The position numbers and the translations under genes are program-made. Shown piece by piece: positions 1 through 18,205 of a DNA stretch of 24,000 nucleotides. Positions within the stretch are counted from its first letter, which is position 1, and every line of letters begins with the position of its first letter. The notes below the pieces were generated by a model. It made no database searches, was not told where the DNA came from, and saw only the letters and a program-made list of their open reading frames with translations. This DNA is from Clostridiales bacterium (GTDB taxonomy: Bacteria > Bacillota > Sulfobacillia > CADDZV01), in NCBI GenBank assembly GCA_902812875.1, contig CADDZV010000002.1, positions 19,318 to 43,317 of the forward strand. Direction: 5' to 3'.

Positions 1-778
1 CCACCGTAAGCATGATCTCCTCGCGTCTGCCATGCTCCTTTGCCCGCACGGTGATGACCGAGTTTGCGTCCACTACAAACGTTCGTATGGATATGAGTGA
101 ATATGGACAGATAGGGCTTACCAGCAACACATCGGCGGCGGGATCAACCACCGGCCCCCCGGCAGCAAAATTGTAAGCGGTCGACCCGGTAGGAGTCGAC
201 ACGATCACGCCGTCAGCCGGGTACTCGGCCGCCTGGCGGCCGTCCACCTGGACTTCCAAATGAATCAGGCGGGCCAGCGGGCCCTTGGTAAGGGTGACGT
301 CGTTGAGGGCAAAAAACCCCGGCCCGGGTCCTTGCGGACGCATGACGGTTGCTTCCAGCATCACGCGGTTGTCCAAGAGGCACCGGCCGGCAATATAGTC
401 CGGCAAGGCCGACCAGAGGTTTTTGAGCTCCACTTCCGTCAGAAATCCGATATGGCCGAGATTGACACCGAGAATCGGGACGTCCACCGCCGCCGCCAGC
501 CGTGCCGCAGCCAAAAGGGTCCCATCGCCGCCCATTACGATCAGGAAATCGCTTCCAATGAGGAAGTCCGCCTCTGAGCGGGCGAGGTCCGGCCTGCCGA
601 TCGCTTCCGCGTCCGCCGGCCGCAGCCTGACCTGGACGCCAGCCGACTCGAGCCACCTGGCCAGATCCGCTCCCACGGCCCGCGCCACCGGTTTTTCGGT
701 GTTGAGAAATATGCCTACGCGGCGTGCCCCGCCAGCGGCGGCCCAACCCGGTGAATCTTGCCAAGACCCCACCTTCAT
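1..778 (-). CDS. nadK: NAD(+) kinase (NadK/PpnK); C-terminal end runs off the left edge of the window
   Basis: Hand translation of the minus strand from ATG 778..776 gives MKVGSWQDSPGWAAAGGARRVGIFLNTEKPVARAVGADLARWLESAGVQVRLRPADAEAIGRPDLARSEADFLIGSDFLIVMGGDGTLLAAARL... This contains the GGDGT NAD-kinase signature (around 515-530). The frame stays open to position 1 (...VITVRAKEHGRREEIMLTV). It is absent from the ORF track because it has no in-window stop. Its ATG overlaps the dxs stop as ATGA (775..778). Confidence 0.9.
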   Translation of the reverse strand, partial: MKVGSWQDSPGWAAAGGARRVGIFLNTEKPVARAVGADLARWLESAGVQVRLRPADAEAIGRPDLARSEADFLIGSDFLIVMGGDGTLLAAARLAAAVDVPILGVNLGHIGFLTEVELKNLWSALPDYIAGRCLLDNRVMLEATVMRPQGPGPGFFALNDVTLTKGPLARLIHLEVQVDGRQAAEYPADGVIVSTPTGSTAYNFAAGGPVVDPAADVLLVSPICPYSLISIRTFVVDANSVITVRAKEHGRREEIMLTV

Positions 779-2694
779 ACCGTCCTCCTCTCGGCAGCAC
801 CCACCGGTACGGATGCCTTTTGTCCCAAAAGCTCCCGCGCCGCCTGGGCGATCCCCGCGGGGTCCAAACCATATTGCCGCAGATAGATCGCCCGGTCGCC
901 GTGTGGAACGATTCCGTCCGGCACGGCCAGTAGCCGTACCGGTGCTGCGACCCCCACGCGAGCCATCAACTCCAGCACAGCACTGCCGAAACCGCCGAGT
1001 GCCGTGTGTTCCTCGACGCAGAGCATGGCCCCGGTACGGCTCAGTTCCTGCACCAAGGTTTGTTCATCGAGTGGCTTGACAAACCGGGCATTGATGACGG
1101 AGGCATCAATGCCCTCGGACGCCAGCTGGGCGGCAGCTTCCATCGCCGGGTAGACCATGGCACCAATCGCGGCGATGCTTAGGTCGGTGCCCTGACGTAG
1201 TACTTCGGCACGGCCCACCGCGATGTGTTCTGGCCGGCGTCCCTGCAGGCCCACGGGCACGGTCCCCCGGGGGTACCGGATGGCCACCGGACCGGATAGC
1301 ATGAGCGCCGTTTTCAGCATGTCCCGCAACTCGTCTCCGTCCTTGGGAGCCATCACGGTCATGTTCGGAAGAACGCGCAGGTAAGCCAGATCGTAAAGGC
1401 CCTGGTGGGTCTCCCCGTCGTCCCCTACGATGCCGGCCCGGTCAAGGCTGAAAACGACATGGAGATTCTGCAGGCAGACGTCGTGTTCGATCTGGTCAAA
1501 AGCCCGTTGCAAGAAAGTCGAGTATATCGCCACGACCGGTACCCGGCCTGCCGCCGCCAGCCCGGCCGCGAAGGTGACCGCATGCTGCTCGGCGATTCCG
1601 ACGTCGAAAAACCGGTCGGGAAAAACCTCGGCGAAGTACTTCAACCCGGTACCCGTGGGCATTGCCGCGGTAATCGCCACTATGCGGTCATCTTCCCGTG
1701 CCAGTTCCGTCACCGTACGCCCGAATACCTGGGAGTAACTCGGCCGGCCGGAACCGTTGGTGATGGGGGTACCGGTGTCCGGATCGAACGGGCCGGAAGC
1801 ACCGTGCAGCCGCTCCGGATCGTTGATGGCCGGTTCATAGCCGTGGCCTTTTTCGGTCACCACATGTACGAGCACCGGGCCGTCGGCTCCTCCGGCCTCA
1901 CGCAGGACCTCTTCCAGGGCAGGAATATCGTGCCCGGGAATGGGCCCGAGGTACTTGAACCCGAGCTGCTCGAACAGCACCCCCGGAACCAAAAGATACT
2001 TGAGGGTGTCCCGGAGCTTTTCCACGCCGTGCCATACCAGCTTGCCGAGCCACGGCATGCGTGCGGACTGTCTTTGCAGGGAACGCTTCAGCCTCAGGTA
2101 GGCAGAGTGCGTGCGGGCCCTGGCCAGGTACCTGGCCAAGGCCCCAACGTTCGGGGCGATCGACATATTGTTGTGGTTGAGCACCACGATAAGATGGGTA
2201 CCCAGCTGACCGGCGTGGTTCAACGCCTCAAACGCCATCCCGGCGGTCATCGCCCCGTCGCCGATCACCGCTACCACCTGATAGTCCTCGTGCGCCAGGT
2301 CGCGGGCTTTGGCAAAACCGAGAGCTGCCCCCACCGAAGTGCCGGCGTGTCCGGCCTCGAATATGTCGTGCGGGCTTTCGCTGCGCTTGAGGTAGCCTGA
2401 GAGGCCGCCATACTGGCGTAAGGTATGGAACCGGTCAAGCCTCCCTGTAAGCAGCTTGTGGGCGTAAGCCTGGTGGCCGACGTCCCAGATGATCTTGTCG
2501 CGTGGGCTATCAAAAACCCGGTGCAAAGCAATGGCCAGTTCGACCGCTCCCAGGCTTGGGCCCAAATGGCCAGAGCCGTTGCGGGCAACCGTGTTGATAA
2601 TCACCTGGCGGATTTCCGCTGCCAGTATGGGCAAATCTTTTTCCGGCAACCGCTTTACGTCTTGTGGGCCATGTATGGTCTCAAGAATGCTCAT
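775..2694 (-). CDS. dxs: 1-deoxy-D-xylulose-5-phosphate synthase
   Basis: 639-aa ORF with a typical DXS N-terminus (MSILETIHGPQDVKRLPEKDLPILAAEIRQ...GHLGPSLGAVELAIALHRVFDSPRDKIIWDVGHQAYAHKLLTGR). It has the thiamine-diphosphate motif region (IGDGAMTAGMAFEALNHAG) and a transketolase-like C-terminal half. A GAGGGAG RBS lies 7 nt upstream of the ATG. Confidence 0.97.
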   Translation of the reverse strand: MSILETIHGPQDVKRLPEKDLPILAAEIRQVIINTVARNGSGHLGPSLGAVELAIALHRVFDSPRDKIIWDVGHQAYAHKLLTGRLDRFHTLRQYGGLSGYLKRSESPHDIFEAGHAGTSVGAALGFAKARDLAHEDYQVVAVIGDGAMTAGMAFEALNHAGQLGTHLIVVLNHNNMSIAPNVGALARYLARARTHSAYLRLKRSLQRQSARMPWLGKLVWHGVEKLRDTLKYLLVPGVLFEQLGFKYLGPIPGHDIPALEEVLREAGGADGPVLVHVVTEKGHGYEPAINDPERLHGASGPFDPDTGTPITNGSGRPSYSQVFGRTVTELAREDDRIVAITAAMPTGTGLKYFAEVFPDRFFDVGIAEQHAVTFAAGLAAAGRVPVVAIYSTFLQRAFDQIEHDVCLQNLHVVFSLDRAGIVGDDGETHQGLYDLAYLRVLPNMTVMAPKDGDELRDMLKTALMLSGPVAIRYPRGTVPVGLQGRRPEHIAVGRAEVLRQGTDLSIAAIGAMVYPAMEAAAQLASEGIDASVINARFVKPLDEQTLVQELSRTGAMLCVEEHTALGGFGSAVLELMARVGVAAPVRLLAVPDGIVPHGDRAIYLRQYGLDPAGIAQAARELLGQKASVPVGAAERRTV

Positions 2695-2706: not shown

Positions 2707-3327
2707 TCAACGCTGGCGGGGCTTCGGCTTGGCACCCTTGTGGTTAGACGGTTCCTGAGCCCAAAAGTGTACACCAAAATGGGCTTCTAAAAATGAGAGC
2801 AGTCGTCCCACCACGAGCACTATATCATTGGCACGGTTGATTGCTAATCCCTTGGCCACGGCCTTGCCTCCGACCGTGAGGGCAGCAACCAATGAAACCA
2901 TAAGAGCACTGGCGAGAGCGTCGTTCAAGTGCGGTCGGGAAACCATGATCCGAAATACAATTGCCGCACCTGCCGAGCCTGAGATGGTCCCGGAGACGTC
3001 GCCTACGATGTCATTGCAAAAGCTCGTCACTTGGGCAGCGTGCCGCACGACCGCAATTGCCTGACGGGCCCCGTTGCGTTTTTTGGCCGCCATGGCATGA
3101 AATGGAGCTTCGTCAGCCGCCGCCGTAGCGACACCGACGATATCGAACACGATCCCTACGAAAATAATGGCGGCAAGTACCAGCCCAGCCACGACAATAC
3201 CGCTCACGCGCAAGGCCGCCTCGGACAGAGTACTGACAGCCAAGGCAGCGACGAATGTACTCGCTCCGATGGTGATGCCCCGCCGCCAGTCTTCACGCCC
3301 GAGACGGCCCTGACTCGCTGACGCCAA
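2707..3327 (-). CDS. oapA: Small integral membrane protein, candidate OLE-associated protein A (OapA)
   Basis: 206-aa ORF with about four hydrophobic segments and no enzymatic motifs. It contains a conserved-looking polar patch, FCNDIVGDVSGTISGSAG (D-x-x-x-D), inside a membrane segment. A TTG start at 3327 follows an AGGAG 9 nt upstream. It lies immediately downstream of the structured ORF-free region and immediately upstream of dxs, which is the published position of oapA in OLE loci. The name rests on synteny and size, not on an alignment I could run. Confidence 0.7.
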   Translation of the reverse strand: MASASQGRLGREDWRRGITIGASTFVAALAVSTLSEAALRVSGIVVAGLVLAAIIFVGIVFDIVGVATAAADEAPFHAMAAKKRNGARQAIAVVRHAAQVTSFCNDIVGDVSGTISGSAGAAIVFRIMVSRPHLNDALASALMVSLVAALTVGGKAVAKGLAINRANDIVLVVGRLLSFLEAHFGVHFWAQEPSNHKGAKPKPRQR

Positions 3328-3339
3328 CCACGCTCACTC

Positions 3340-3990
3340 CTGGTAGGAAATGCACGCAAAAAATATACAGTAGGTGGTAGCAGGCCGGGTAAACGTTATG
3401 GCTTGAGGTCCAGCTGGCTTTCCCAAAGCAGCTCCCAGGCGTCGCCGTCCCGGGCGGTTACCCTTTATGCCGCTTCTGCTCCGTCACCGCAAGCAGTGCT
3501 AGACGGCCACTGAGCACATACTGTAATCCCCGGCCTGCCTCTTTCGGGAAGAGCAGCCTAGGGGTTTTCCCCGCCGAATCCGATGACGGCTCCTAGCCTC
3601 TTTTGCGGCTGCGGTTTCGAACGCGTAACCGATGACGGGTAAGGCGCCATACCCGCCACCTCTGAACGTCTTCCACCGCCGCCACTCAAGGCAGGCTACG
3701 CTGCACACAGCCTGCTATAACCGCATGCAGGTTTCTCCCCGGGCCGTAGTAGCCATCATACCACCACGCACCCGGGTCTCCGCGGCAGCAGGGTCGGTCG
3801 CCTACATGCCGTTGTAGATCGCCCCGCTGCCTTAACTCCCAGCACCGGCACCCGGCTGGGCGCCGGCCGCCAGCACCAGAAGCTTCATCGATGTGCCCTT
3901 GGCGGATTTTTAGGCCCGCCCTCAGAGCCGCGGATCCGACTAGGATACTGCACCACCCACTAGAACTTTTGAATCCGCAAGGTCCTGCAA
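3340..3990 (-). ncRNA. ole: Candidate OLE (ornate, large, extremophilic) RNA, about 650 nt
   Basis: A 734-bp gap between bshA-like (stop 4062) and oapA-like (start 3327) holds only two implausible ORFs (61 and 69 aa, Arg/Cys/Gly-rich). It is dense in inverted repeats (plus-strand coordinates): 3691-3697/3709-3715 (7 bp), 3784-3793/3822-3831 (10 bp) enclosing 3802-3806/3813-3817, 3635-3641/3650-3656 (7 bp), 3847-3852/3859-3864 (6 bp), 3901-3905/3916-3920, and 3930-3935/3973-3978. Three of these stems contain a pair that is G-U in the minus-sense RNA but A-C in the plus sense, which sets the strand. The context ispA ... RNA, small membrane protein, dxs, nadK matches published OLE loci. The ends are approximate. 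Confidence 0.7.
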
Positions 3991-3993
3991 TTC

Positions 3994-4002
3994 ATTATAG
4001 CA
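3994..4002 (-). promoter_or_regulatory. Extended -10 promoter element (TGCTATAAT) upstream of the OLE candidate
   Basis: The minus strand reads TGCTATAAT (plus 3994-4002 = attatagca), a perfect TGnTATAAT. There is no recognisable -35 at 17 nt spacing (CGGGGC). It would place a start site near 3987. OLE could also be read through from bshA, since I see no terminator after 4062. Confidence 0.4.
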
Positions 4003-4061
4003 GATAGTTCTCGTACGCCCCGGCGTGCCTGGTGTTGGCTTGTCGGCTATATCCTGTACGG

Positions 4062-5204
4062 TCATCCTGGATACGAAGCCGCGGAATCTATGGCGACGTC
4101 ATCCGGTTCCACCAGGCTTTGGTACAACTCCTCGTAACGTGGTATTAGTTTGTCGGCGGTAAAATGCGCCATGACGTGGTCGCGGGCCGCCCGGCCCATC
4201 TCGTAGCGCCGCTCTGCGTCGAAAAGCAGTTTTTCGCCTGCCTCCGCCATGCCCTGTTCGTCGTCAGGATCGAAAAGAAAACCCGTTTCGCCGTCCACCA
4301 CTACCTCGGGCAAGCCGCCAACGCGGCTGGCAAGCACCGGCAGGCCGCAAGCCATGGCCTCCACGGCCGCCAAACCGAAACTTTCCTCCGCCGATGGCAA
4401 AAGGAACAAGTCCCCTGTGGCCAGGGCCGGCGCCACGTTTGGCACCTTGCCGGCAAAATGGACGTGTTCCCGGATGCCAAAACGTTCGACCAAGGCTTCG
4501 GCGGCTGCACGCTCCGGTCCGTCACCAACCAGCAGAAGTTTCGCCGGGTGACGGGAGACCATACGGGCAAAGACCCGTATCACCCTGTCGATCCGCTTGA
4601 CCGGGCGAAAATTCGACACGTGGATGACCACAGGCATCCGATCCTTTTCCTTGCGGAGACGGGGGCGAAACTGCCATACATCCACAAAATTCGGTATAAC
4701 CGTGATTGCTCTCGAGACGCCAAAAAGCTCGCGTGTGCGCCGGCGGAGATACCGCGAAACTGCCGTCACCCGGTCTACCTGCTCAAGCCCATCCCGCATT
4801 ACCGACGCCAAAGCAGCGTCGTGTCCAAGCACCGTGACATCCGTCCCGTGCAAAGTTACCACCAGGGGCACACGGTCGCGGCCCAAAAGCGTCTGGGCCA
4901 GCAAGGCCGCAGCCAAGTGGGGCACGGCGTAATGGACGTGCACCACATCAAGCTTGTGGGTGCGTACGACATCCGCGATTGATCCTGCGGCGGCCATCCC
5001 GTAAGGTTTGGACGGCAACACGGGATAGTCCGGTAGGCCGATCCTGTGCAAGTACACGCGCCCGGAAGAGTCATCCAACCGGAATGGCCGTTCCAGGCTG
5101 ATGAAATGTACTTCATGGCCGCGCGCCGCCAGGTGGCGGCCGAGCTCGGTTGCGACGACCCCGCTGCCGCCGTAGGTGGGATAGCAAACGATGCCAATGC
5201 GCAT
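4062..5204 (-). CDS. bshA: GT4-family glycosyltransferase, BshA-like (N-acetyl-alpha-D-glucosaminyl L-malate synthase, bacillithiol biosynthesis)
   Basis: [36 protein letters not shown]..., [76 protein letters not shown]. These blocks track the B. subtilis BshA (YpjH) sequence as I remember it ([76 protein letters not shown]). The start is set at ATG 5204, with AAGGAGGTG 6 nt upstream. The track's GTG at 5213 lies inside that RBS. Confidence 0.8.
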   Translation of the reverse strand: [380 protein letters not shown]

Positions 5205-5252
5205 GGAAAGCACCTCCTTGGCTCATTTGCCAGATTGCCCTGGGCAGGGGAT

Positions 5253-5311
5253 AAAAAAACCAGGAGAATTCCGCCTTGACGGCCTGAACGGTACTGGCGT
5301 ACCGCTCCCCT
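5253..5311 (-). terminator. Putative riboswitch expression platform ending in a U7 tract
   Basis: The minus strand after the aptamer reads AUAAAGGGGAGCGGUACGCCAGUACCGUUCAGGCCGUCAAGGCGGAAUUCUCCUGGUUUUUUUAU. It has a run of 7 U (plus 5253-5259) and a CGGUAC/GUACCG hairpin. UACGCC is perfectly complementary to the 3' P1 strand plus one base (GGCGUA), which allows alternative pairing. I could not draw a clean canonical terminator stem directly abutting the U tract. Confidence 0.4.
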
Positions 5312-5315
5312 TTAT

Positions 5316-5420
5316 ACGCCTACGAGGTTAGCTGACGGGCTCGGGCCAAAGGGTGGCCCTACGGTGAGATTCGCCCCAAACGACCTTTGGTTCCCCCGTT
5401 CCCGGATCGGGATTCGGCGT
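5316..5420 (-). promoter_or_regulatory. ydaO-yuaA motif riboswitch (c-di-AMP class) in the leader of the bshA-like gene
   Basis: The minus strand reads ACGCC GAAUC CCGAUCCGGG AACGGGGGAACCA AAGGUCGU UUGGGGCGAAUC UCACC GUAGGG CCACCCUUUGG CCCGAGCCCGUCAGCUAACCUCGUAGGCGU. It matches the remembered B. subtilis ydaO aptamer block by block: CGCUUAAUC, GCGGGGGACCCA, UGGGGUGAAUCC, GUAGGG, ACCCGAACCCGUCAGCUAACCUCGUAAGCG. P1 (ACGCC/GGCGU) is present. The hairpins CCCG-AUC-CGGG, CCAAA-GGUCG-UUUGG and GGCCA-CCCUU-UGGCC fall in the expected places. Confidence 0.9.
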
Positions 5421-5452
5421 TTCCCTGGGTATCGTGGCAGATATAGTGTTAT

Positions 5453-5482
5453 ATTTTCACACGAGCGGGTTTATGTTGTCAA
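5453..5482 (-). promoter_or_regulatory. Candidate sigma-A-type promoter for the riboswitch and bshA transcript
   Basis: The minus strand has TTGACA (plus 5477-5482), an 18-nt spacer, then GAAAAU preceded by TGT (plus 5453-5458). It lies 25 nt downstream of the ispA stop and about 30 nt upstream of the aptamer. Confidence 0.5.
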
Positions 5483-5506
5483 CCCGAGTCCCGGTGGCCG
5501 ATTGAA

Positions 5507-6373
5507 TCAATGGACGGGAGAGTCGAGGCGGGACCGTACCATGTCTGCCAGGACGGCCAGCGCGTCTCCCTGGGGGAAGCGAAGTGCGATGGCACTCGCC
5601 TGGTCAAAATACCGGCGGGCATTTTCCACCGCCCCGGCAACACCCGCCAGGACCGGATAAGACATGCGCCCGGCATCTTTATCCTGGTCCTCGAGATCGT
5701 CCACGATCTGGTACCCCAGCCCGAACGACCGCCCGAACTGGGCAAGAAGATCGACCGCGTCAGGGTCCGCTGCACACAGGATCGGACCAAGGCTGGCCGC
5801 GGCTTCAAAGAGGGCCGCGGTCTTCTTTCCATGGAGGTACTGCAGCTGTTCCATCGTAAAGGGAGCGTCCCCGTCGATGTCGGCCGCTTGCCCGGCGACC
5901 ATGCCTTGTGGCCCTGCCGCTCGGGACAGCACTGCCACCGCCTGCACCACCCGCTCCGGCGGCACGCCCGCCGCAGTCGCCTGTGCCAATACCTCAAACG
6001 CAAGCGTCAGTAGCCCGTCGCCCGCGAGAATGGCCATGGCTTCACCCTTTGCCCGGTGCAGGGTCGGGCGTCCCCGGCGGAAATCGTCGTTGTCCATCGC
6101 GGGCAGGTCGTCGTGGATAAGGGAGTAGGTGTGAATAAGCTCGATGGCTACGGCGCCGGGCAAAGCCGCCGCCACGCTGCCGCCGACTGCCCGGGCACCA
6201 GCCAATACCAAAAGTGGCCGTAACCTTTTCCCGCCGGAAAATGTGGCATACCGCATGGCGTCGTAAAGGCCTTCGCTGTGCGGATCAGGTGCTTGGAGCA
6301 CCGCGCGGATGCCGGTCTCGATCAAGGGTGCAACGTCCTCCAGAAATCGCTGGCCGCTTTCCGTACTAGTCAT
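5507..6373 (-). CDS. ispA: Farnesyl/geranylgeranyl diphosphate synthase (polyprenyl synthetase family)
   Basis: 288 aa. It has the first Asp-rich motif LIHDDLPAMDNDDFRRGRPT and the second Asp-rich motif GYQIVDDLED. The start ATG overlaps the xseB stop (ATGA at 6370-6373). Confidence 0.95.
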   Translation of the reverse strand: MTSTESGQRFLEDVAPLIETGIRAVLQAPDPHSEGLYDAMRYATFSGGKRLRPLLVLAGARAVGGSVAAALPGAVAIELIHTYSLIHDDLPAMDNDDFRRGRPTLHRAKGEAMAILAGDGLLTLAFEVLAQATAAGVPPERVVQAVAVLSRAAGPQGMVAGQAADIDGDAPFTMEQLQYLHGKKTAALFEAAASLGPILCAADPDAVDLLAQFGRSFGLGYQIVDDLEDQDKDAGRMSYPVLAGVAGAVENARRYFDQASAIALRFPQGDALAVLADMVRSRLDSPVH

Positions 6374-7905: not shown

Positions 7906-8832
7906 CTACAGTGTAAACCGGCCGAAGGCTGCTGCCACCACGTGTTCAAGCAAAATCGCCATGGTCACCGGTCCCACCCCGCCGGGAACCGGCGTCAAAA
8001 AACCTGCCACCGCCGCCGCGGCCTCCGTATCAACGTCGCCGCGCAGGCTCCCATCCACGACGTTGGTACCCACATCGATGACCACAGCCCCCGGCTTGAT
8101 CATCTCCGCCTTGACAAGCCCCGCCCGTCCAACGGCAACCACGAGCACATCTGCCTGCGCGGTCACGGCGCCCAAGTCTGGCGTGCGTGAGTGGGCGATA
8201 GTCACGGTGGCGTGCCGTGCGAGGAGCATGGCGGCAGCCGGCTTTCCCACACGGGGAGAGCGCCCGACCACCACGGCATGCCGCCCCGCCAGCGACGCCC
8301 GCGGCAGATCAAGGGTGCCGTCCTGGGCGGCTTTATCCACTGCCTCGGTCGTCAAAGCGGCCAGTGCCAGGTCCACTAGTCGCATGACCGCCGACGGAGT
8401 GGCCGGAGCGAACCCAGGCTGCCCCTCCCAAAGCCGGCCGGCATTGGTCGGGTTGGTGCCGTCCACGTCGCGCCCGGGATCGATGCTTTCGCACAGCCGG
8501 GCAAAATCGACGCCCGGCGGGACCGGGGATTGGAGGATGATGCCGTCCACGCCGCCATCGGCAGGATCAGCGCCCAACCGCACGAGTTCGCGGCGCAGCT
8601 CGTCCTCGGACGCCGTGCCTGGCAGGCTGACGGTGCGGGCCTCGATGTTCACCTCCCGGCAGCCCTTCTCGATGCTCCGCACATAGCGGCGGGTGGCCCC
8701 GTCGTCGGTGGCCACGAGTATACCCAGGCGCACCGGGCGTCCCGATTCTTGGGCGAATTGAGCCGCCAGTTTGCCCACCCTGGCCCTGATGGCCCGAGAA
8801 AGTGCATTCCCATCCAGCATGACTGCACCCAT
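7906..8832 (-). CDS. folD: Bifunctional methylenetetrahydrofolate dehydrogenase/cyclohydrolase
   Basis: DGIILQSPVPPG, DPGRDVDG, AVVVGRSPRVGKPAAAMLL, VVIDVGTN and TPVPGGVGPVTMAILLEH are classic FolD blocks. The start is set at ATG 8832, which overlaps the nusB stop as ATGA. The 55 extra N-terminal residues in the track ORF are Arg-rich read-through of the nusB 3' end. Confidence 0.93.
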   Translation of the reverse strand: MGAVMLDGNALSRAIRARVGKLAAQFAQESGRPVRLGILVATDDGATRRYVRSIEKGCREVNIEARTVSLPGTASEDELRRELVRLGADPADGGVDGIILQSPVPPGVDFARLCESIDPGRDVDGTNPTNAGRLWEGQPGFAPATPSAVMRLVDLALAALTTEAVDKAAQDGTLDLPRASLAGRHAVVVGRSPRVGKPAAAMLLARHATVTIAHSRTPDLGAVTAQADVLVVAVGRAGLVKAEMIKPGAVVIDVGTNVVDGSLRGDVDTEAAAAVAGFLTPVPGGVGPVTMAILLEHVVAAAFGRFTL

Positions 8833-9254
8833 CAGCTGTTGTCCCCCTCCCCGGACTGACTTACCTTGTGGATGGTACCGAGAATCCCGTTTACGAACCG
8901 TGACGAGTCTTCGGTGCCGTATCTTTTGGCGATTTCCACGGCATCGTTGATCACTATGGCCGCCGGCACCTCTTTGCGGTACAGAAGCTCGTAGCACGCG
9001 AGCCGCAGCACGTTGCGGTCCACACTGGCCATGCGGTACACCGGCCAGTCGCCGGCATAGCGGTTGAGGATGTCGTCGATCTCGGCCAGATGTTCGTAGG
9101 TCCCGAGGTAGAGCGTGCGTGCCAGCATGGCCGTGTCGGCGCCAACGCCGGCCAGATCCTCTACGCTGGCCAGGACGGATTCCACTTCCTGGTGGCCAAC
9201 ATCAGTCTGAAAAAGCATACGCATGGCCAGCTCTCTGGCCTGCCGCCGACGCAT
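8832..9254 (-). CDS. nusB: Transcription antitermination factor NusB
   Basis: 140 aa. MRRRQARELAMRMLFQTDV..., VDRNVLRLACYELLYRKEVPAAIVINDAVEIAKRYGTEDSSRFVNGILG is typical of NusB. Confidence 0.95.
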   Translation of the reverse strand: MRRRQARELAMRMLFQTDVGHQEVESVLASVEDLAGVGADTAMLARTLYLGTYEHLAEIDDILNRYAGDWPVYRMASVDRNVLRLACYELLYRKEVPAAIVINDAVEIAKRYGTEDSSRFVNGILGTIHKVSQSGEGDNS

Positions 9255-9303: not shown

Positions 9304-9564
9304 TCACCGGCGTCCCGGAGGGAGAATGCGATCAATGAAGTCGGTGATATCCTCGCGGGCCGCGTCGAAGTAATGGCCTATCCATAACCCTGTGCCGACG
9401 CAGATGACAATAAACATGGTCCACAAAAAACCGTAGCGCATGACCAGGATGGCGAAAAGGCCGCCCAGAATCCCGCCGAGGGTTTTGCCGCGGTGGGCAC
9501 GCCAGAACCGGTCAAACCAGAACAACCCCTGCGCAAGGTAGTCGTTCGCAGCCCGCTTCTCCAT
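9304..9564 (-). CDS. Small two-segment membrane protein, DUF2273-like (third member of Asp23 modules)
   Basis: 86 aa from ATG 9564, with AGGTGA 7 nt upstream: MEKRAANDYLAQGLFWFDRFWRAHRGKTLGGILGGLFAILVMRYGFLWTMFIVICVGTGLWIGHYF... It has a Gly-rich hydrophobic hairpin. It lies directly after the amaP-like gene, as in described asp23 operons. The track's longer N-terminus overlaps amaP and is rejected. Confidence 0.7.
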   Translation of the reverse strand: MEKRAANDYLAQGLFWFDRFWRAHRGKTLGGILGGLFAILVMRYGFLWTMFIVICVGTGLWIGHYFDAAREDITDFIDRILPPGRR

Positions 9565-9571
9565 CTGCCGC

Positions 9572-10105
9572 TCACCTGGAGCCCCGGACTTCCGCGCTGA
9601 TGTTGACCACGTCCACGTTGACCTCGGCTGCCTTGACCCCGACGATTTCGCTGGCGGTGTCCCGCAGTGCCTTCTGCACAAGTTCCGTGGTCTCGGGCAC
9701 ACTGGCGTCAGGGCTAAGCACCAACCGCGTATGGACCGCGAGCCCGCCCGGCGTCATTTCCACCTCCGCCCTGGCCTCGCGCACACCCCGGGTCTGGGCG
9801 GCAACGCGGCGCATCAGATTACGCACCGCGTAGATCGATACCCGCACCTCACCGAGGTCGTTCTCCCGCACCAGGGCCTGTCCCACCGACGTCCGCCGAA
9901 AAGCCACATAGAAAAACCGGATGCTGATGAGAAAAACGATGCCGCTGATGATGCCAGTGAGCCAGCGGCCGTTTACGGTGTGCAACCCGGCCAAAACAGC
10001 ATTTAGCGGGCCGGTAACATCGAACACAGCCAGGAGTAACATCAGGGAAGCAACGGTGGTAACCAAGGCAAACACTACCAGCACTGCGCGGTCAAAAAAA
10101 CCCAT
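9572..10105 (-). CDS. amaP: Alkaline shock response membrane anchor protein AmaP-like
   Basis: 177 aa with two N-terminal TM segments followed by an Asp23-like soluble domain (LGEVRVSIYAVRNLMRRVAAQTRGVREARAEV...). It starts 1 nt after the asp23 stop. Confidence 0.75.
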   Translation of the reverse strand: MGFFDRAVLVVFALVTTVASLMLLLAVFDVTGPLNAVLAGLHTVNGRWLTGIISGIVFLISIRFFYVAFRRTSVGQALVRENDLGEVRVSIYAVRNLMRRVAAQTRGVREARAEVEMTPGGLAVHTRLVLSPDASVPETTELVQKALRDTASEIVGVKAAEVNVDVVNISAEVRGSR

Positions 10106-10528
10106 TTATCGCACCCCGGCCTCCTCACGTTTGTCTTCGTTATGGAAGGAAACCCCCTGGACGTGCACGTTGACTTCTGTCACCCGCAGGCCAGTCATGC
10201 TTTCGACCGCACTCTTGACATTCTCCTGCACCCGGGCGGCCACATCGGGAATCCGCACACCGTAGTTCACAATGAGGGAAATGTTGATCGAAACTTCTTT
10301 TTCCCCTATCTCGACGCTGATACCCCGGGAAGGATTTTTCCGTCCGAGCATCTCGGTGATACCGCCCACAAAACCGCTGGCCAGGGCGGTCACGCCTTCG
10401 ACTTCGCTCGCCGCGATACCAGCAATCACACCCACCACATCGTCCGCAATTTGCACGTCCCCGCCATTGATACCCTCGCTGGCAGGTACTATTGTTTCGG
10501 ACTTGTCATCGAAAGCATCTGTACTCAC
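10106..10528 (-). CDS. asp23: Asp23/Gls24 family envelope stress protein (YqhY-like)
   Basis: 140 aa with typical Asp23-family blocks: VQIADDVVGVIAGIAASEVEGV, GISVEIGEKEVSINISLIVNYGVRIPDVAARVQENVKSAVESMTGLRVTEVNVHVQGV. The GTG start is somewhat uncertain because the RBS spacing is long. Confidence 0.88.
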   Translation of the reverse strand: MSTDAFDDKSETIVPASEGINGGDVQIADDVVGVIAGIAASEVEGVTALASGFVGGITEMLGRKNPSRGISVEIGEKEVSINISLIVNYGVRIPDVAARVQENVKSAVESMTGLRVTEVNVHVQGVSFHNEDKREEAGVR

Positions 10529-12554: not shown

Positions 12555-13145
12555 CTATGGCCGACCGATGACGGTGACCTTGTCCGGGGCGATGCCCGCG
12601 ACCCGGTAAACCACGTCCGCAACCTGGGCCACCTGAACCTTGTCAAGCGTCGCCGCTTCCACGAGCACGATGGCGCCGGTCTCTTCCAGCATCACCACAG
12701 CCTCCGGAAATCCCTTGGCGACCAAAAGGCCTTCGATCGAAGCCTCCTGACTGATCCTCGTCGTGAGTGCAAAAAGCCTCTCGCTCGCCCGGGTACGAGT
12801 CTGGGTATCGGTGGCTTGGTCGTCCAGTAGCCGCTGCAAAAGCTCCATTTCCTGCGAACGTGCCCGGTCGCGGCTCAAACGCGTCAGGGCAAACAAGCCG
12901 CTCGTGTTGCCGGCTGCTGCCGCCGGCAGCTGGCCTTGGCCGGGGAGGGTGGCCGTACCCGGTGACGGGGCACCGGACGGAAAGATGTTTTCGGCTTGTT
13001 CCTCCAAACTCTCGTCGGTGGGCTTTTTCCCCTGGTCCATCACCTGACGACGGTAGGCCTGCAGTCTCGCGAACGCGGCGACGGCGACCAGGATGACAAG
13101 GATCGCGAGCAATAACGTGACGATAGTCCTCCGCCGCACGACCAT
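12555..13145 (-). CDS. spoIIIAH: Stage III sporulation protein AH
   Basis: It has one N-terminal TM segment (RRRTIVTLLLAILVILVAVAAF), a low-complexity linker, and a C-terminal YscJ/FliF-like domain (ISQEASIEGLLVAKGFPEAVVMLEETGAIVLVEA...VADVVYRVAGIAPDKVTVI). It is the last gene of the spoIIIA series. The start is ATG 13145, with GAGGGGA 5 nt upstream. Confidence 0.85.
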   Translation of the reverse strand: MVVRRRTIVTLLLAILVILVAVAAFARLQAYRRQVMDQGKKPTDESLEEQAENIFPSGAPSPGTATLPGQGQLPAAAAGNTSGLFALTRLSRDRARSQEMELLQRLLDDQATDTQTRTRASERLFALTTRISQEASIEGLLVAKGFPEAVVMLEETGAIVLVEAATLDKVQVAQVADVVYRVAGIAPDKVTVIGRP

Positions 13146-13161
13146 AACCGTCCCCTCTTCC

Positions 13162-13980
13162 TCAATGGCCGCTTGTCCGCGGCAGAATCGCAATCTTGTG
13201 CACGGGGATGCCGAGGACAGTTTGCACCGCCTGGTAAAGCATGGCGGATACGTGCGGATCGCTCGCCCCATCTGCCACCACCAAAACCCCACGGATCTCG
13301 GCGGCGAGGTACTGGGTGACCACCGGGGTTTCCGTGGCGCCGCCGGCAGTCCTGGCCATGAGGTACTGGCTTTGGGTGCTCTCTTGGATGGTCGTGCGCG
13401 TGCCGCCGTTCGAGTCTTTTTCTTCGATGTGCTGTGAGCTCGTGGTAGTGTTGGCGGCCAGTACCAGACGGCTGCTTGATTTGAGCAGCACTACTGCAGA
13501 TACCTTGCCGGCGCCGGGAACCTGCGAGAGGGTACGCTCCAGCATGCGCGCCAGGGCATCTTCCGTGGAAGCGGTTTTGGTGTCGACCGCGCCAGACGAT
13601 GCTTCGCCAGGTACAGCCAGTTCCGGTTGCAGGCCGGTGCCAGGAGGCGTGCTGCCGACCACTCCGGTGACCTGTTCTTTGGCCGGCGCGGGCTGTGCGG
13701 TGACCTGTACCGGGGCGCCTGCGCGCCGCCCGTAGAGCAGTAGGGCCACGCCGATCGTGCCGAGAACCAGCAAATACCAGTTGGTCGACCACACCCGGCG
13801 CCAACCACCTTGGGTTGGACTGCCTGACTGGCGGCTACGTTTTTGGTGGGTCAGCACTACCTTGCGGCTGCCGACCGTATACCGCCTGCCCGAAAGGCCG
13901 GTCCAGGGCGATTCTACCCGCCCACCAAACCACCCGGCCACACGCTCCCACCATGGAACCCGCGTTTTGTGAGGTCGCAT
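13162..13980 (-). CDS. spoIIIAG: Stage III sporulation protein AG
   Basis: It has a TM segment (WYLLVLGTIGVALLLY) and a conserved C-terminal ring-forming domain (VSAVVLLKSSS..., EIRGVLVVADGASDPHVSAMLYQAVQTVLGIPVHKIAILP). ATG 13980 is preferred, with GGGGGTGA upstream. The TTG at 14010 in the track has a poor RBS. Confidence 0.85.
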   Translation of the reverse strand: MRPHKTRVPWWERVAGWFGGRVESPWTGLSGRRYTVGSRKVVLTHQKRSRQSGSPTQGGWRRVWSTNWYLLVLGTIGVALLLYGRRAGAPVQVTAQPAPAKEQVTGVVGSTPPGTGLQPELAVPGEASSGAVDTKTASTEDALARMLERTLSQVPGAGKVSAVVLLKSSSRLVLAANTTTSSQHIEEKDSNGGTRTTIQESTQSQYLMARTAGGATETPVVTQYLAAEIRGVLVVADGASDPHVSAMLYQAVQTVLGIPVHKIAILPRTSGH

Positions 13981-13999
13981 GCCTTCACCCCCTGCGGTT

Positions 14000-14722
14000 T
14001 TAAGGCCCAAGCCGCACCACGATCATGTCCTCCGGGATACCCAGGCCCGTGGCGAGCGTCCGGCGGACATCAGCCAAAACCCCGCTCGCCCAGGCCGAAA
14101 CACCTTCCCCTGGCGGTTTCCTGCTAGAGGTATCTCCCGGGCCCCCGGAACCCGCTAACGGCGTCGGGATAACCCCGGTCGAAACTGGGCCTACCTGGAT
14201 TTGTACGGGCTCGACCAACGGTGTCATTCCGGACGACTCCTCTGTTGTGGTGCCGCTGCCATTGGCATTCTCAGGCTGAAGCTGGACGATCGTTTCCAGC
14301 CGTTCGAGAGTGCCGAAGCGGTCACTTTGTTGGTCAGTGTTCACGATGGCAGTGCTCGCGGCGGATCGCACGCCGGCCACCTGTGCCGCCAGCTCGTTGG
14401 CACGCCGCTCGAGGGCTTGCCGGAAGAGTGCTACCGCCAGCATGCCCGTCTCCCCGGACGACGCCTCGCCAGGCCAAACCGTCACGCCCTGCACGGCCAC
14501 CGTGCCACTGTCCTGCCAGGATACGGCCGGAACCCATACCTGCTGGCGGAGCAGTTTCCCCACCGGCCCGAGCACCGTAAGGATCAGAAGCAGCCCGACC
14601 ACAACCCGTGCCAGGCGTCGCGCCGCCGACGACGGCAAGAGAAGCTCCAGCACCGCCGCCAGAAAAACAATGATCACGAGCGTCCTGGTAAGCTCGGCCA
14701 GAGTAGCCATGAACCCCGTCAT
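14000..14722 (-). CDS. spoIIIAF: Stage III sporulation protein AF
   Basis: The N-terminus LAELTRTLVIIVFLAAVLELLLPSSAARRLARVVVGLLLILTVLGPVGKLL parallels B. subtilis SpoIIIAF (...IDMLLPSSSMQKYAKMVVSLLLIVVML). Its position in the operon agrees. ATG 14710 is an alternative start. Confidence 0.8.
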   Translation of the reverse strand: MTGFMATLAELTRTLVIIVFLAAVLELLLPSSAARRLARVVVGLLLILTVLGPVGKLLRQQVWVPAVSWQDSGTVAVQGVTVWPGEASSGETGMLAVALFRQALERRANELAAQVAGVRSAASTAIVNTDQQSDRFGTLERLETIVQLQPENANGSGTTTEESSGMTPLVEPVQIQVGPVSTGVIPTPLAGSGGPGDTSSRKPPGEGVSAWASGVLADVRRTLATGLGIPEDMIVVRLGP

Positions 14723-14742
14723 GGGATTTGCGTATCACCTGC

Positions 14743-15945
14743 CTACCGGAAGGCCACCGAAAGCCAACCGGCTCCAAGCATGATCCCGGCCGCCAAAAAG
14801 AACATCAGGGCGACGGCGGCCGTGGCCAGACCGACCAGTGTGAGGCCGTGCCCCATGCTGGCCAGGGTGTCGGCGACCAGGCCGGCCCCGAGCGGCTGTA
14901 CCAACGCCGCCGCCAGTTTATAGACCATGATGAGCACCACAAGCTTGATGAGCGGCAGGGTCACTGTCAGGACAAGGGCAAAAAGCCCTGCCAGACCGAC
15001 CACGCTTTTGACCAGCAACGACGTACCCACCACGACCTCAACGGCATCAGAGAACATCTTCCCGACCACCGGGACGAAAGACCCGGTAAGGAACTTAGCG
15101 GTGCGAACGGTGATGCCATCTGAAACGGCCGCTGCCGCCCCGGACACCGCCGTTACCCCCAGAAACACTGCCAAAAGTACCCCGAGCGTACCGGTCGCCA
15201 GGCTGCGAAAAAGATCTGCCAGCCGCGTCAGCCGGGCGGGTTCCGCCAGGTTGGATGCCACCTCCAGCACCACAGCGAAAACCATCAAAGGAACGGCCAC
15301 ATCGGCCACCAGCACACTGATCGTGTGAACGGCAATAATCATCGCCGGTGACAGGATGCCAGCCGTGGTCACCGCCCCGGCGCTGACGCACAACCCGGCC
15401 AGTAGCGGCAACAACGACAACATGTAATTTACAAGGTCACTGATCGCACCGCGGGAGACGCCCACGGCTGAGCGAAAGCCGCCCATGCCGAGAGCCAGAA
15501 TCACAAGATACGCTACGGTCCAGGCCGTCCGCCCTACCGTTTCCCCTTCGTAGGCCGCCTGCAGGTTGGCCAGTACCGCCGCCACGGCAGACAGCACCAC
15601 CAGCTGGCCAAGTAGACGCAGGTTGACTACCACTGCCCCCAAAAAGTAAGCCACCAGTGCCTGCCAAATCCCGTTCCAGTCAAAGGAACGACGGCCACGC
15701 ACCATGTCCCACCAGTCCCGCAAGGTCACGGGAGGCAGCTTGCCGCCCAGGTCGCGGTTGAGCTGTTCCAGGTAACGTTCGATCTCCTGGGCCTGGTCGG
15801 AGGAAAGCTCTTCCTGGATGATCTTTTCCTCCACGCCGTCAGAAGCTTCGTTCGCCGCTGTGCCAGTCTCCGCCACGGCACACACGGGCCATGCCAAGCC
15901 AGCCGCCACCACGATTACCGCTACCGCAATCTGCCAGGCCTTCAT
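14743..15945 (-). CDS. spoIIIAE: Stage III sporulation protein AE (polytopic membrane protein)
   Basis: 400 aa with a signal-like N-terminus (MKAWQIAVAVIVVAAGLAWPVCAVA), a soluble acidic segment, then about 7-8 TM segments. Size and operon position are typical of SpoIIIAE. Confidence 0.9.
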   Translation of the reverse strand: MKAWQIAVAVIVVAAGLAWPVCAVAETGTAANEASDGVEEKIIQEELSSDQAQEIERYLEQLNRDLGGKLPPVTLRDWWDMVRGRRSFDWNGIWQALVAYFLGAVVVNLRLLGQLVVLSAVAAVLANLQAAYEGETVGRTAWTVAYLVILALGMGGFRSAVGVSRGAISDLVNYMLSLLPLLAGLCVSAGAVTTAGILSPAMIIAVHTISVLVADVAVPLMVFAVVLEVASNLAEPARLTRLADLFRSLATGTLGVLLAVFLGVTAVSGAAAAVSDGITVRTAKFLTGSFVPVVGKMFSDAVEVVVGTSLLVKSVVGLAGLFALVLTVTLPLIKLVVLIMVYKLAAALVQPLGAGLVADTLASMGHGLTLVGLATAAVALMFFLAAGIMLGAGWLSVAFR

Positions 15946-15946
15946 A

Positions 15947-16333
15947 TCAACCGAGCAAAGACAGCACCAGATCCATCACCGCTACCAGGACCGGCACCGC
16001 CAGCACTAGAATGAGAACCTTGGCCGCCAGTTCCACCTTGGAAGCAAGCGCCCCCTCGCCCGCATCCCTGGCGATTTGGGCCGCGAACTCGGCCACATAC
16101 GAGATGCCAATGACGCGCAGCACAGTCCCGACGTAAAACTCGCCGGCCCCGGCCCGGTTGGCAAGATCGGAAACCACGTTCAGGATGGCCCGCAGTTCAT
16201 CGACCACGAGGAGCAGAATCAGAGCCGAGGCAGCCAGGGAAAGACCTACCGCCAGCTCAGGTATGTAGCGGCGTACGACCACGAGCAGCACCGCTGCCAC
16301 CACGCCGAGACCGGCCACCTGGAACACAGACAC
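15947..16333 (-). CDS. spoIIIAD: Stage III sporulation protein AD
   Basis: 128 aa. VLRVIGISYVAEFAAQIARDAGEGALASKVELAAKVLILVLAVPVL aligns with B. subtilis SpoIIIAD (ILKIIGIAYIAEFGAQITKDAGQGAIASKIELAGKILILVMAVPIL). Confidence 0.92.
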   Translation of the reverse strand: MSVFQVAGLGVVAAVLLVVVRRYIPELAVGLSLAASALILLLVVDELRAILNVVSDLANRAGAGEFYVGTVLRVIGISYVAEFAAQIARDAGEGALASKVELAAKVLILVLAVPVLVAVMDLVLSLLG

Positions 16334-16346
16334 GGCATATCCCCCT

Positions 16347-16562
16347 TTAGAGGTGGAACATCGCGCGCACAGCGTCGAAAAGCTGGTTAATCAACTGGAT
16401 CACCATCAGCGAAACGATGACCACGCCAGCTAACGCGATCATGTAGCCAAGCTCTTCCCGCCCGGCCCGGCTGACCACGGTCTGAAGTATGTACGTGATG
16501 ATGGCGATCCCGGCAATCTGAAACACCAGGTCGATGTTCACCCCGGTTCCTCCCTCCAGCAT
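16347..16562 (-). CDS. spoIIIAC: Stage III sporulation protein AC
   Basis: The core VNIDLVFQIAGIAIITYILQTVVSRAGREELGYMIALAGVVIVSLMVIQLINQLFDAVRAMF matches SpoIIIAC (about 65-70 aa). The start is either ATG 16562 or, perhaps better, GTG 16541 with GGAGG 7 nt upstream. The track's 134-aa version overlaps spoIIIAB and is rejected. Confidence 0.85.
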   Translation of the reverse strand: MLEGGTGVNIDLVFQIAGIAIITYILQTVVSRAGREELGYMIALAGVVIVSLMVIQLINQLFDAVRAMFHL

Positions 16563-16569
16563 TACCCTC

Positions 16570-17091
16570 CTAGTAAAGGGCCAGTGCCACTCCCAAGCCA
16601 CCGAAAAGGCCCAACGCCCGCCACACCCGGCCCAGCCGCCGGGCTTCGGCCTCGGCCGGGCCCACGGCCTCCCCGAGGCGGGCATGGGCAAGCCGCAGAT
16701 GCCGGATTTGGTCGTCCCGCCCCGAGGCCCCAAGCACATCTGCAAGCTCACTCATCGCCGCCCAGTCGGCTACACTGAGGGCCGCGGACGCCGACGCCTG
16801 CCGTATGGCGTTTTGCCAGGCTTCGGCTACCGGCGCCGGCCGAGGCCCCACCAACCCCCCGGCCGCGACGCGTGCCAAGGTCGCCGCCGGCTCGGCCACC
16901 GTTCGCTCGGCCCGGCGTAGAGCCTGCGGCAGCGGTACCGCAGCGTAAGCGATGTCGGTCTCCAGCACCTCCAATAGGTGCATTAGGGCCCTCAGCTCGC
17001 GTGGCCGCGCCTCCACCCGCGCCGCGACCTGCCAACCCCACAGGGTGGACGAAACTACCACCATCAAGGCACCAAGCGGCCGCACATTCAT
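16570..17091 (-). CDS. spoIIIAB: Stage III sporulation protein AB
   Basis: 173 aa from ATG 17091, which overlaps the spoIIIAA stop as ATGA. It has an N-terminal TM segment, then ERPRELRALMHLLEVLETDIAYAAVPLPQAL (compare B. subtilis ERPRQIRQLRAALQSLEAEIMYGHTPL), and a C-terminal TM segment. Confidence 0.87.
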   Translation of the reverse strand: MNVRPLGALMVVVSSTLWGWQVAARVEARPRELRALMHLLEVLETDIAYAAVPLPQALRRAERTVAEPAATLARVAAGGLVGPRPAPVAEAWQNAIRQASASAALSVADWAAMSELADVLGASGRDDQIRHLRLAHARLGEAVGPAEAEARRLGRVWRALGLFGGLGVALALY

Positions 17092-18167: not shown

Positions 18168-18205
18168 GCTCTGGCCTCCTTTGAACCTGTCCACGTGGTC
18201 GCTAA

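Follow-up and report, generated by a model that had tools for sequence, protein, structure and literature searches.

A predicted c-di-AMP riboswitch heads a bshA cassette inserted between ispA and the OLE RNA in a small clade of uncultured Bacillota

Riboswitches for cyclic di-AMP (c-di-AMP) typically control genes for K+ and osmolyte transport and for cell-wall remodelling, and in Streptomyces such a riboswitch stands before the cell-wall hydrolase gene rpfA. In Bacillus subtilis, aptamers of this class (Rfam family RF00379, ydaO-yuaA) occur at kimA (ydaO) and ktrA (yuaA), and in Corynebacterium glutamicum a c-di-AMP riboswitch precedes nlpC, a single envelope-related gene that encodes a cell-wall hydrolase, in a G+C-rich host (PMC9960051). 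Here we describe an RF00379 aptamer in the leader of bshA, the gene for the first committed enzyme of bacillithiol synthesis, in a 24,000-nucleotide (nt) stretch of DNA from an uncultured member of the Bacillota (contig CADDZV010000002.1 of assembly GCA_902812875.1, positions 19,318 to 43,317; hereafter the window). The reading we favor, and hold to be probable rather than secure, is that this leader functions as a c-di-AMP riboswitch under a sigma-A-type promoter of its own, that it acts as an OFF switch through a long-range terminator helix termed P0, and that it belongs to a bshA cassette inserted between ispA and the OLE RNA.

The locus shares with kimA and ktrA the RF00379 aptamer, its P1 stem, its pseudo-symmetric helices and its tail-loop complementarity, as well as its placement in a 5' leader downstream of a sigma-A-type promoter; repression at high c-di-AMP would be expected here likewise. 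It differs from them in carrying bshA instead of a K+/osmolyte transporter or cell-wall hydrolase gene, in having no short terminator hairpin (next to the U-tract, the sole stem is one formed over a long range with the 5' flank of P1), and in its place within a long operon, 24 nt past the end of ispA, instead of at the head of a transcription unit. The resemblance to C. glutamicum nlpC, which extends to a G+C-rich host (62% G+C here) and a single envelope-related cargo gene, crosses both phylum and enzyme: BshA is cytoplasmic, draws on UDP-N-acetylglucosamine (UDP-GlcNAc) and does not cleave peptidoglycan.

The bshA genes of B. subtilis (mgsA-bshB1-bshA) and Thermincola (bshB1-bshA-perR) encode the same enzyme family, TIGR03999, as the gene described here. 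Those genes are clustered with bshB1, whereas here bshA stands alone behind a second-messenger riboswitch, and no such riboswitch is present at the bacillithiol-operon bshA loci examined. The regulation known for bshA is exerted by a protein, Spx, under disulfide stress (PMC5790435). The remainder of the locus corresponds to the OLE operon of Halalkalibacterium halodurans and other Bacillota, in which nusB, folD, xseA, xseB and ispA precede OLE, and oapA and dxs follow it, as they do on the minus strand here. This likeness continues with NAD kinase, argR and recN, seen in a close relative of the window (locus L082, below), and a proximal promoter of OLE's own is common to both operons. What sets the window apart from that operon is a cassette of promoter, riboswitch and bshA, about 1.45 kb long, inserted between ispA and OLE.

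An initial annotation, made from the sequence without database searches, had proposed a ydaO-class aptamer upstream of a BshA-like GT4 glycosyltransferase. A cmscan search of the entire 24-kb window against Rfam bears out the aptamer: RF00379 matches positions 5429..5302 on the minus strand with 91.1 bits (E = 1.7e-20), against a gathering score of 38 bits, over model positions 1-134 of 134 and with zero non-canonical pairs flagged. Above the curated thresholds, the window holds just one other Rfam match, that to the OLE family RF01071, also on the minus strand. Once this strand is read, the invariant block quoted in the annotation (CCCGAGCCCGUCAGCUAACCUCGUAGGCG) is present, its P1 stem appears as a CGCC/GGCG pairing, and its span of 5253-5482 proves to run exactly from the promoter to the U-tract; the annotation had missed that the riboswitch belongs to a long minus-strand operon. 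The promoter lies at 5482-5453, the aptamer at 5429-5302 and the bshA start codon at 5204, so ordered in cis. The 3' tail of the aptamer and one of its hairpin loops (AAAGGG/CCCUUU) are complementary over 6 base pairs (bp) in the window and 5 bp in each of two orthologous leaders, as judged by sequence complementarity only; from the motif and crystal-structure literature we take this pairing to be the pseudoknot of the ydaO motif. By its sequence, this RNA is a high-scoring, full-length and ordinary member of RF00379.

Orthologs of the cassette were found at two further loci. In public data, just one NCBI contig and one short SRA assembly encode the exact BshA protein. Its relatives are P0002, which is 91% identical and is encoded on a 204-kb ENA contig and a JGI contig (locus L082), and P0003, which is 75% identical (locus L085); both are metagenomic. 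Beyond these two, identity falls to 54% or less, in NC10, Acidobacteriota, Planctomycetota, Bacteroidota and a few Bacillota. At both loci, a gap of ~300 nt separates ispA from bshA and another of ~735 nt separates bshA from oapA, which dxs follows. In L082 and L085, respectively, Rfam places an aptamer (90.7 and 92.3 bits) in the first gap and OLE (466.8 and 486.8 bits) in the second.

Comparison of the window with L085 indicates that the leader is under purifying selection. Identity amounts to 86.8% in the aptamer and 86.0% in the 97-nt platform between aptamer and AUG, close to that of OLE (90.8%); it drops to 71% in the bshA coding sequence (52% at third codon positions), 45% in the spacer between bshA and OLE, and 37% between the ispA stop codon and the -35 box. 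Given that neutral sites retain only 37-52%, the platform is constrained as strongly as the aptamer itself, and the cassette has persisted while third codon positions of bshA diverged to 52% identity. These figures also bear on the idea of a decaying relic aptamer that plays no part in regulation, for which one could cite the failure to find a canonical expression platform. A relic would hardly be expected to give a full-length, high-scoring match with zero broken pairs, nor to be 86-87% identical together with its platform where neutral sites have diverged so far, and we regard this explanation as extremely improbable.

The cassette appears to be confined to this group. In the outgroup loci L088 and L090, where OapA is 57% and 51% identical, ispA, OLE and oapA follow one another directly, and Rfam confirmed OLE and detected no riboswitch. 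A third outgroup, L096 (OapA 58% identical), has an ispA match, the same gene order and a 739-nt gap between ispA and oapA, and a motif search of the locus found no aptamer core. In all three, bshA is likewise absent between ispA and OLE. At other bshA loci, Rfam detected neither RF00379 nor OLE (8 loci), and the aptamer core motif CCGNCAGCTNACC occurs in 0/80 of the bshA loci fetched from the genome collection. A search of that collection with BshA returned mostly Bacteroidota, the best match (49% identical) being from a Thermincola sp. metagenome-assembled genome (MAG; locus L001). There, at 3202-5683, bshB1 (TIGR04001, 277 bits), bshA and a gene for a PerR-family regulator are adjacent, and there is no riboswitch. 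A metagenome scan with the pattern of the platform hairpin recovered no further lineages, only the two JGI contigs already known; pattern matches in L091 and L093 lie inside unrelated coding sequence and were rejected as chance hits. The arrangement is found in only three lineages, all uncultured and known from metagenome assemblies. As far as gene order and sequence go, the riboswitch-bshA cassette is a lineage-specific insertion into the OLE operon of a small clade of uncultured Bacillota.

We then consider the cargo. The protein encoded downstream of the aptamer scores 465.2 bits against the NCBIfam equivalog model TIGR03999, for which the cut-off is 273.7 bits; the next-best family reaches 147.6 bits and MshA 101 bits, each below its own cut-off. 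Its five best PDB matches are BshA structures from Bacillus anthracis, B. subtilis and Staphylococcus aureus: 2jjm and 3mbo (B. anthracis) at ~4e-101 (best 3.7e-101), 5d00 (B. subtilis) at 5.5e-91, and 6d9t and 6n1x at ~4e-80, with the next non-BshA chain at 1e-24. In a MAFFT alignment of 118 homologs (117 from the database plus the B. anthracis enzyme), the BshA proteins of this clade match 77 of the 81 columns with conservation of 95% or more, including the GGSG loop, HGTD, NFR..K and the glutamates of E-x7-E. The four changes (V55I, T116V, S143V and L281V) are conservative. The BshA-like GT4 enzyme of the initial annotation can therefore be named with more precision, and we accept the product as an ordinary BshA at the level of sequence family; from this we would expect BshA activity, and bacillithiol production, in the host.

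A BshA by sequence might nevertheless serve something other than bacillithiol, with GlcNAc-malate or a related anionic glycoside acting as a compatible solute, a K+ counter-ion or an envelope precursor. Such a function would fit the osmotic and envelope theme of c-di-AMP regulons, and the genetic setting lends it some appeal: bshA is solitary, with neither bshB nor bshC found within the 24-kb window or the 13-kb L082 locus, in contrast to the bshB1-bshA-perR arrangement of L001, the closest Bacillota locus in the genome collection, and the BshA of this clade sits on a long branch from its next relatives. We know of no solute of the GlcNAc-malate type, however, and the equivalog score far above its cut-off and the retained conserved residues are those of the bacillithiol enzyme family. 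Separation of the genes is also common, as bshA, bshB and bshC are often unlinked and bshC belongs to a separate operon in B. subtilis (PMC5790435). We consider a role outside bacillithiol synthesis rather doubtful.

How the leader might control bshA depends on the sequences that flank the aptamer (Table 1). Upstream, the TTGACA-type promoter of the initial annotation was recovered at 5482..5477 with a TG-extended -10 element and an 18-nt spacer, and TTGACA with TG-n-NANAAT recurs at the same spacing in all three lineages; transcription would start near 5446. Downstream of the aptamer tail follow a 9-bp hairpin, a 3-bp hairpin, the segment UUCUCCUGG (which we call the hub), the U7 tract that had also been reported (5259..5253), UCCCCU (5251..5246), a hairpin capped by a GNRA loop and the Shine-Dalgarno (SD) sequence. 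Within the 97-nt platform, a permissive Rfam E-value scan of 3950-5520 yielded no credible further RNA element.

In our preferred model, we infer both the ligand response and its sign, together with a P0 terminator and some read-through into OLE. Binding of c-di-AMP would lock P1 (CGCC/GGCG) and the pseudoknot (AAAGGG/CCCUUU). The 5' flank of P1, ACCCAGGGAA (5430-5421), would then pair with UUCUCCUGG (5268-5260), abutting U7, to form P0. Stacked under P1 and holding the whole aptamer as its loop, P0 would serve as a long-range terminator stem and end transcription ahead of bshA. In the absence of ligand, the G-rich tail GGGGAG would be free to capture CUCCU and permit read-through. Attenuation of this kind would act both on transcripts from the riboswitch promoter and on those arriving from ispA, so that BshA, which consumes UDP-GlcNAc and malate in the first committed step of bacillithiol synthesis, would be made when c-di-AMP is low. 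The fraction of OLE-oapA-dxs transcripts that arises by read-through might be modulated too, although OLE has its own promoter.

Several predictions are consistent with this model. The P0 pairing is present in the minimum free energy (MFE) folds of the nascent transcripts of all three lineages and ends exactly at the U-tract. Its duplex energies of -10.8, -11.1 and -13.4 kcal/mol are attained by 1-4% of shuffled sequences. L085 keeps P0 despite three substitutions, through a register shift of one nucleotide.

Other observations weigh against P0 as a ligand-dependent terminator. A terminator scan of the window, L082 and L085 found no conventional short G+C-rich hairpin before U7, and a short terminator hairpin was absent from every platform fold we made. 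The local fold of 5345-5245 is not more stable than shuffled sequence (z = -0.64), and the U-tract of L085 is interrupted. P0 is predicted in apo folds as well, and its dependence on ligand would therefore have to be kinetic. Folds in which the aptamer was enforced or forbidden gave no consistent difference in terminator or SD accessibility, varying instead with the 3' boundary and the lineage. With three closely related sequences, the RNAalifold covariation term (+0.23) amounts to essentially no true covariation. Finally, the complementarity between the hub and the SD region, at -11.9 to -14.5 kcal/mol, is stronger than that of P0 and favors a translational mechanism.

In such a translational mechanism, CUCC(U)GGUUU together with the U-tract (5266-5253) would provide an anti-SD strand for GAGCC-AA-GGAG (5224-5213), and the tail GGGGAG would act as an anti-anti-SD in the absence of c-di-AMP; the U-tract would then belong to a helix and not to a terminator, in keeping with the lack of a canonical terminator and the interrupted tract of L085. 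RNAalifold predicts the SD-sequestering helix from the three leaders, and one-sided changes in it keep the pairing (U-G to C-G, C-G to U-G). When the aptamer and pseudoknot are constrained, the window fold gives an SD unpaired probability of ~0.01. These predictions are not robust, however: the window's apo fold hides the SD too, the lineages disagree, and the SD is predicted to be open in all states once more coding sequence is included. On this modeling, we see translational control as a serious possibility, though not the one we would expect.

The same G-rich tail can be cast in the opposite role, that of an ON switch. Without ligand, GGGAG would pair with CUCCU, close a three-way junction 2 nt before U7 and terminate transcription, and c-di-AMP would free read-through. 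The two strands are indeed complementary in the window and in L085 (CUUCC), with 4 bp (GGAG/CUCC) in L082, and the wobble-compatible helix adjoins the U-tract. This helix is weak, however (-5.8 to -8.4 kcal/mol for the tail GGGGAG with CUCCU), it closes a multibranch loop, and a GG separates it from the U-tract. To our knowledge, moreover, every characterized c-di-AMP riboswitch is an OFF switch. The reporter logic of the kimA riboswitch follows the same direction, being OFF with high c-di-AMP (PMC13046274). We therefore consider an ON switch quite improbable, and OFF control through P0 remains our preferred reading.

Another pairing in the leader was noticed. The leader's initial 20 nt, AUCUGCCACGAUACCCAGGG (5423-5442), can pair over ~14 bp with the sequence that follows the U-tract (5228-5246), and the full-length MFE fold of each of the three lineages contains this pairing. 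In these models it could constitute another long-range helix, in competition both with P0 and with the local hairpin capped by the GNRA loop. An apparent compensatory change beside the U-tract (CCAG/CUGG to CCGG/CCGG) was rejected because it requires a register shift in the alignment.

Table 1. Window coordinates of the elements of the bshA leader and of the genes and RNA next to it.
Feature	Position	Strand	Basis and remarks
-35 box TTGACA	5477..5482	-	Promoter scan; identical in L082 and L085, invariant in alignment
Extended -10 TG-n-GAAAAT (TGTGAAAAT)	5453..5461	-	Promoter scan
5' flank of P1, ACCCAGGGAA	5421..5430	-	Proposed 5' strand of the long-range P0 helix
P1 of aptamer, CGCC/GGCG	5419-5416/5320-5317	-	RF00379 match
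Aptamer block CCCGAGCCCGUCAGCUAACCUCGUAGGCG	5345..5317	-	Sequence
Aptamer 3' tail AAAGGG	5313..5308	-	Complementary to hairpin loop CCCUUU (5353..5348); presumed ydaO pseudoknot and proposed switching strand
Hairpin GAGCGGUAC-GCCA-GUACCGUUC, 9 bp	5286..5307	-	Predicted in every fold; stem invariant, one loop base varies (GCCR)
Hub segment UUCUCCUGG	5260..5268	-	Complementary to 5' flank of P1, pseudoknot tail GGGGAG and SD region
U7 tract	5253..5259	-	U6C in L082, UUCUUUCUUUU in L085
Hairpin UGCCCAGG-GCAA-UCUGGCA	5228..5246	-	RNAalifold and alignment; loop GCGA in L085, still GNRA
SD sequence of bshA, AAGGAGGUG, strong	5211..5219	-	Sequence
bshA, GT4 N-acetyl-alpha-D-glucosaminyl L-malate synthase, 380 amino acids	AUG 5204, stop 4062	-	TIGR03999
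ispA, farnesyl-diphosphate synthase	5507..6373	-	NCBIfam NF045485, E = 1.4e-77
Extended -10 of OLE's own promoter, TGCTATAAT	3994..4002	-	Sole conserved block in the diverged bshA-OLE spacer
OLE RNA (RF01071), full length	3358..3972	-	Rfam, 459.6 bits, E = 3.8e-132
oapA-like, CNNM/DUF21-type membrane protein, 206 amino acids	2707..3327	-	Homologs directly after OLE in L088, L090 and L096
dxs, 1-deoxy-D-xylulose-5-phosphate synthase	775..2694	-	TIGR00204, 782.5 bits

Apart from the added cassette, the surroundings have the layout of an OLE locus, with a full-length OLE RNA, an oapA-like gene directly after it, and ispA and dxs on its flanks. OLE begins 90 nt past the bshA stop codon; the initial annotation had made no mention of it. 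On the other side, 24 nt separate the ispA stop codon (5507) from the -35 box of the riboswitch promoter. Scans of all three lineages detected no hairpin terminator in the interval from ispA to the riboswitch, nor in that from bshA to OLE. It follows that transcripts of the upstream operon ought to run into the riboswitch, and the switch may affect the share of OLE-oapA-dxs transcripts that derives from read-through. The extended -10 element of OLE's own promoter takes the form TGCTATAAT or TGATATAAT across the compared loci, and a promoter is called at this site in L085. In Bacillus halodurans, OLE has an active proximal promoter that raises its expression >100-fold, and some OLE is co-transcribed with its neighbors (PMC3413148).

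This arrangement raises the question of whether OLE-oapA-dxs is the main target, with the riboswitch working as an operon-internal attenuator of OLE ribonucleoprotein and isoprenoid-precursor expression and bshA as a passenger. The exact placement of the cassette in the ispA-OLE interval, shared by all three lineages, and the terminator-free junctions on both sides would suit such a role. OLE also co-occurs with the phosphodiesterase PgpH and has been proposed, speculatively, by the Breaker laboratory to be a c-di-AMP synthase ribozyme (PMC11332333). Against this stand the strength of the B. halodurans proximal promoter, the outgroup OLE loci that lack a riboswitch, the placement of the aptamer, which is that of an ordinary 5' leader 97 nt ahead of the bshA AUG, and the conserved TGnTATAAT promoter 20-30 nt upstream of OLE, in a spacer that has otherwise diverged. 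Because OLE has this conserved promoter of its own, we rate bshA well above OLE as the main target and think an OLE-directed switch unlikely. We give an equally low rating to a broader proposal, in which the cassette's position is no accident: c-di-AMP would gate transcription into the OLE-oapA-dxs half of the operon, whether it comes from the nusB-ispA genes or from the riboswitch promoter, and co-expression would join BshA to the OLE ribonucleoprotein in one membrane and redox stress response.

The oapA-like protein has no Pfam or NCBIfam match of its own; several of its homologs carry PF01595, those examined always follow OLE, and its nearest relatives outside the clade are ~60% identical. 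Further upstream of the operon genes named above lie accC, asp23/DUF2273, the spoIIIA operon, pepQ, lplA and gcvPA/PB. The spoIIIA sporulation operon (12555-18194, minus strand), upstream of accB/accC, has recognizable AA, AE, AF, AG and AH genes and marks the host as an endospore-forming member of the Bacillota. Small envelope/stress proteins of the Asp23 family and DUF2273 are encoded at 9304-10528 (minus strand), between accC and nusB, and are kept in L082, L085 and L088. The longest folD open reading frame (7906-8997, minus strand, 363 amino acids) carries an N-terminal extension of ~58 residues relative to the 304-308 amino acids of its relatives and overlaps nusB (8832-9254), for which reasons the start codon is probably internal. 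An open reading frame of 219 amino acids at 213-872 (minus strand) has no family match and overlaps the 3' end of dxs. It is probably spurious, since the gene after dxs in L082 is NAD kinase, which here would run off the end of the window.

In the literature that we searched, no paper names ydaO together with bshA, and no link between a c-di-AMP riboswitch and bacillithiol has been proposed; only a study of GlmR and its preprint mention both, separately, using the kimA riboswitch as a reporter and noting that UDP-GlcNAc is needed for bacillithiol. Nor is a c-di-AMP riboswitch at an OLE locus described there, including in papers that treat both OLE RNA and c-di-AMP. What is new here is the combination of a c-di-AMP riboswitch with bshA; the highly conserved, non-canonical platform and the insertion site beside OLE stand out as well. 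A physiological rationale is suggested by the coupling of the c-di-AMP cyclase CdaA, through GlmM, to UDP-GlcNAc synthesis in the GlcN-phosphate/UDP-GlcNAc pathway (PMC13046274): speculatively, a shared UDP-GlcNAc pool could be the reason for placing bshA under c-di-AMP control.

The leader may represent an unusually conserved design in which the aptamer lies inside its own terminator, in place of a canonical one. A riboswitch of this kind would join a second messenger of osmotic and envelope homeostasis to the first committed step of low-molecular-weight thiol synthesis. Its neighbor, OLE, is among the largest bacterial non-coding RNAs of unknown function, and indirect evidence has led to the proposal that it bears some relation to c-di-AMP. 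If c-di-AMP does gate transcription into OLE, this locus would be the first direct genomic link between the two, a link so far only speculated upon (PMC11332333).

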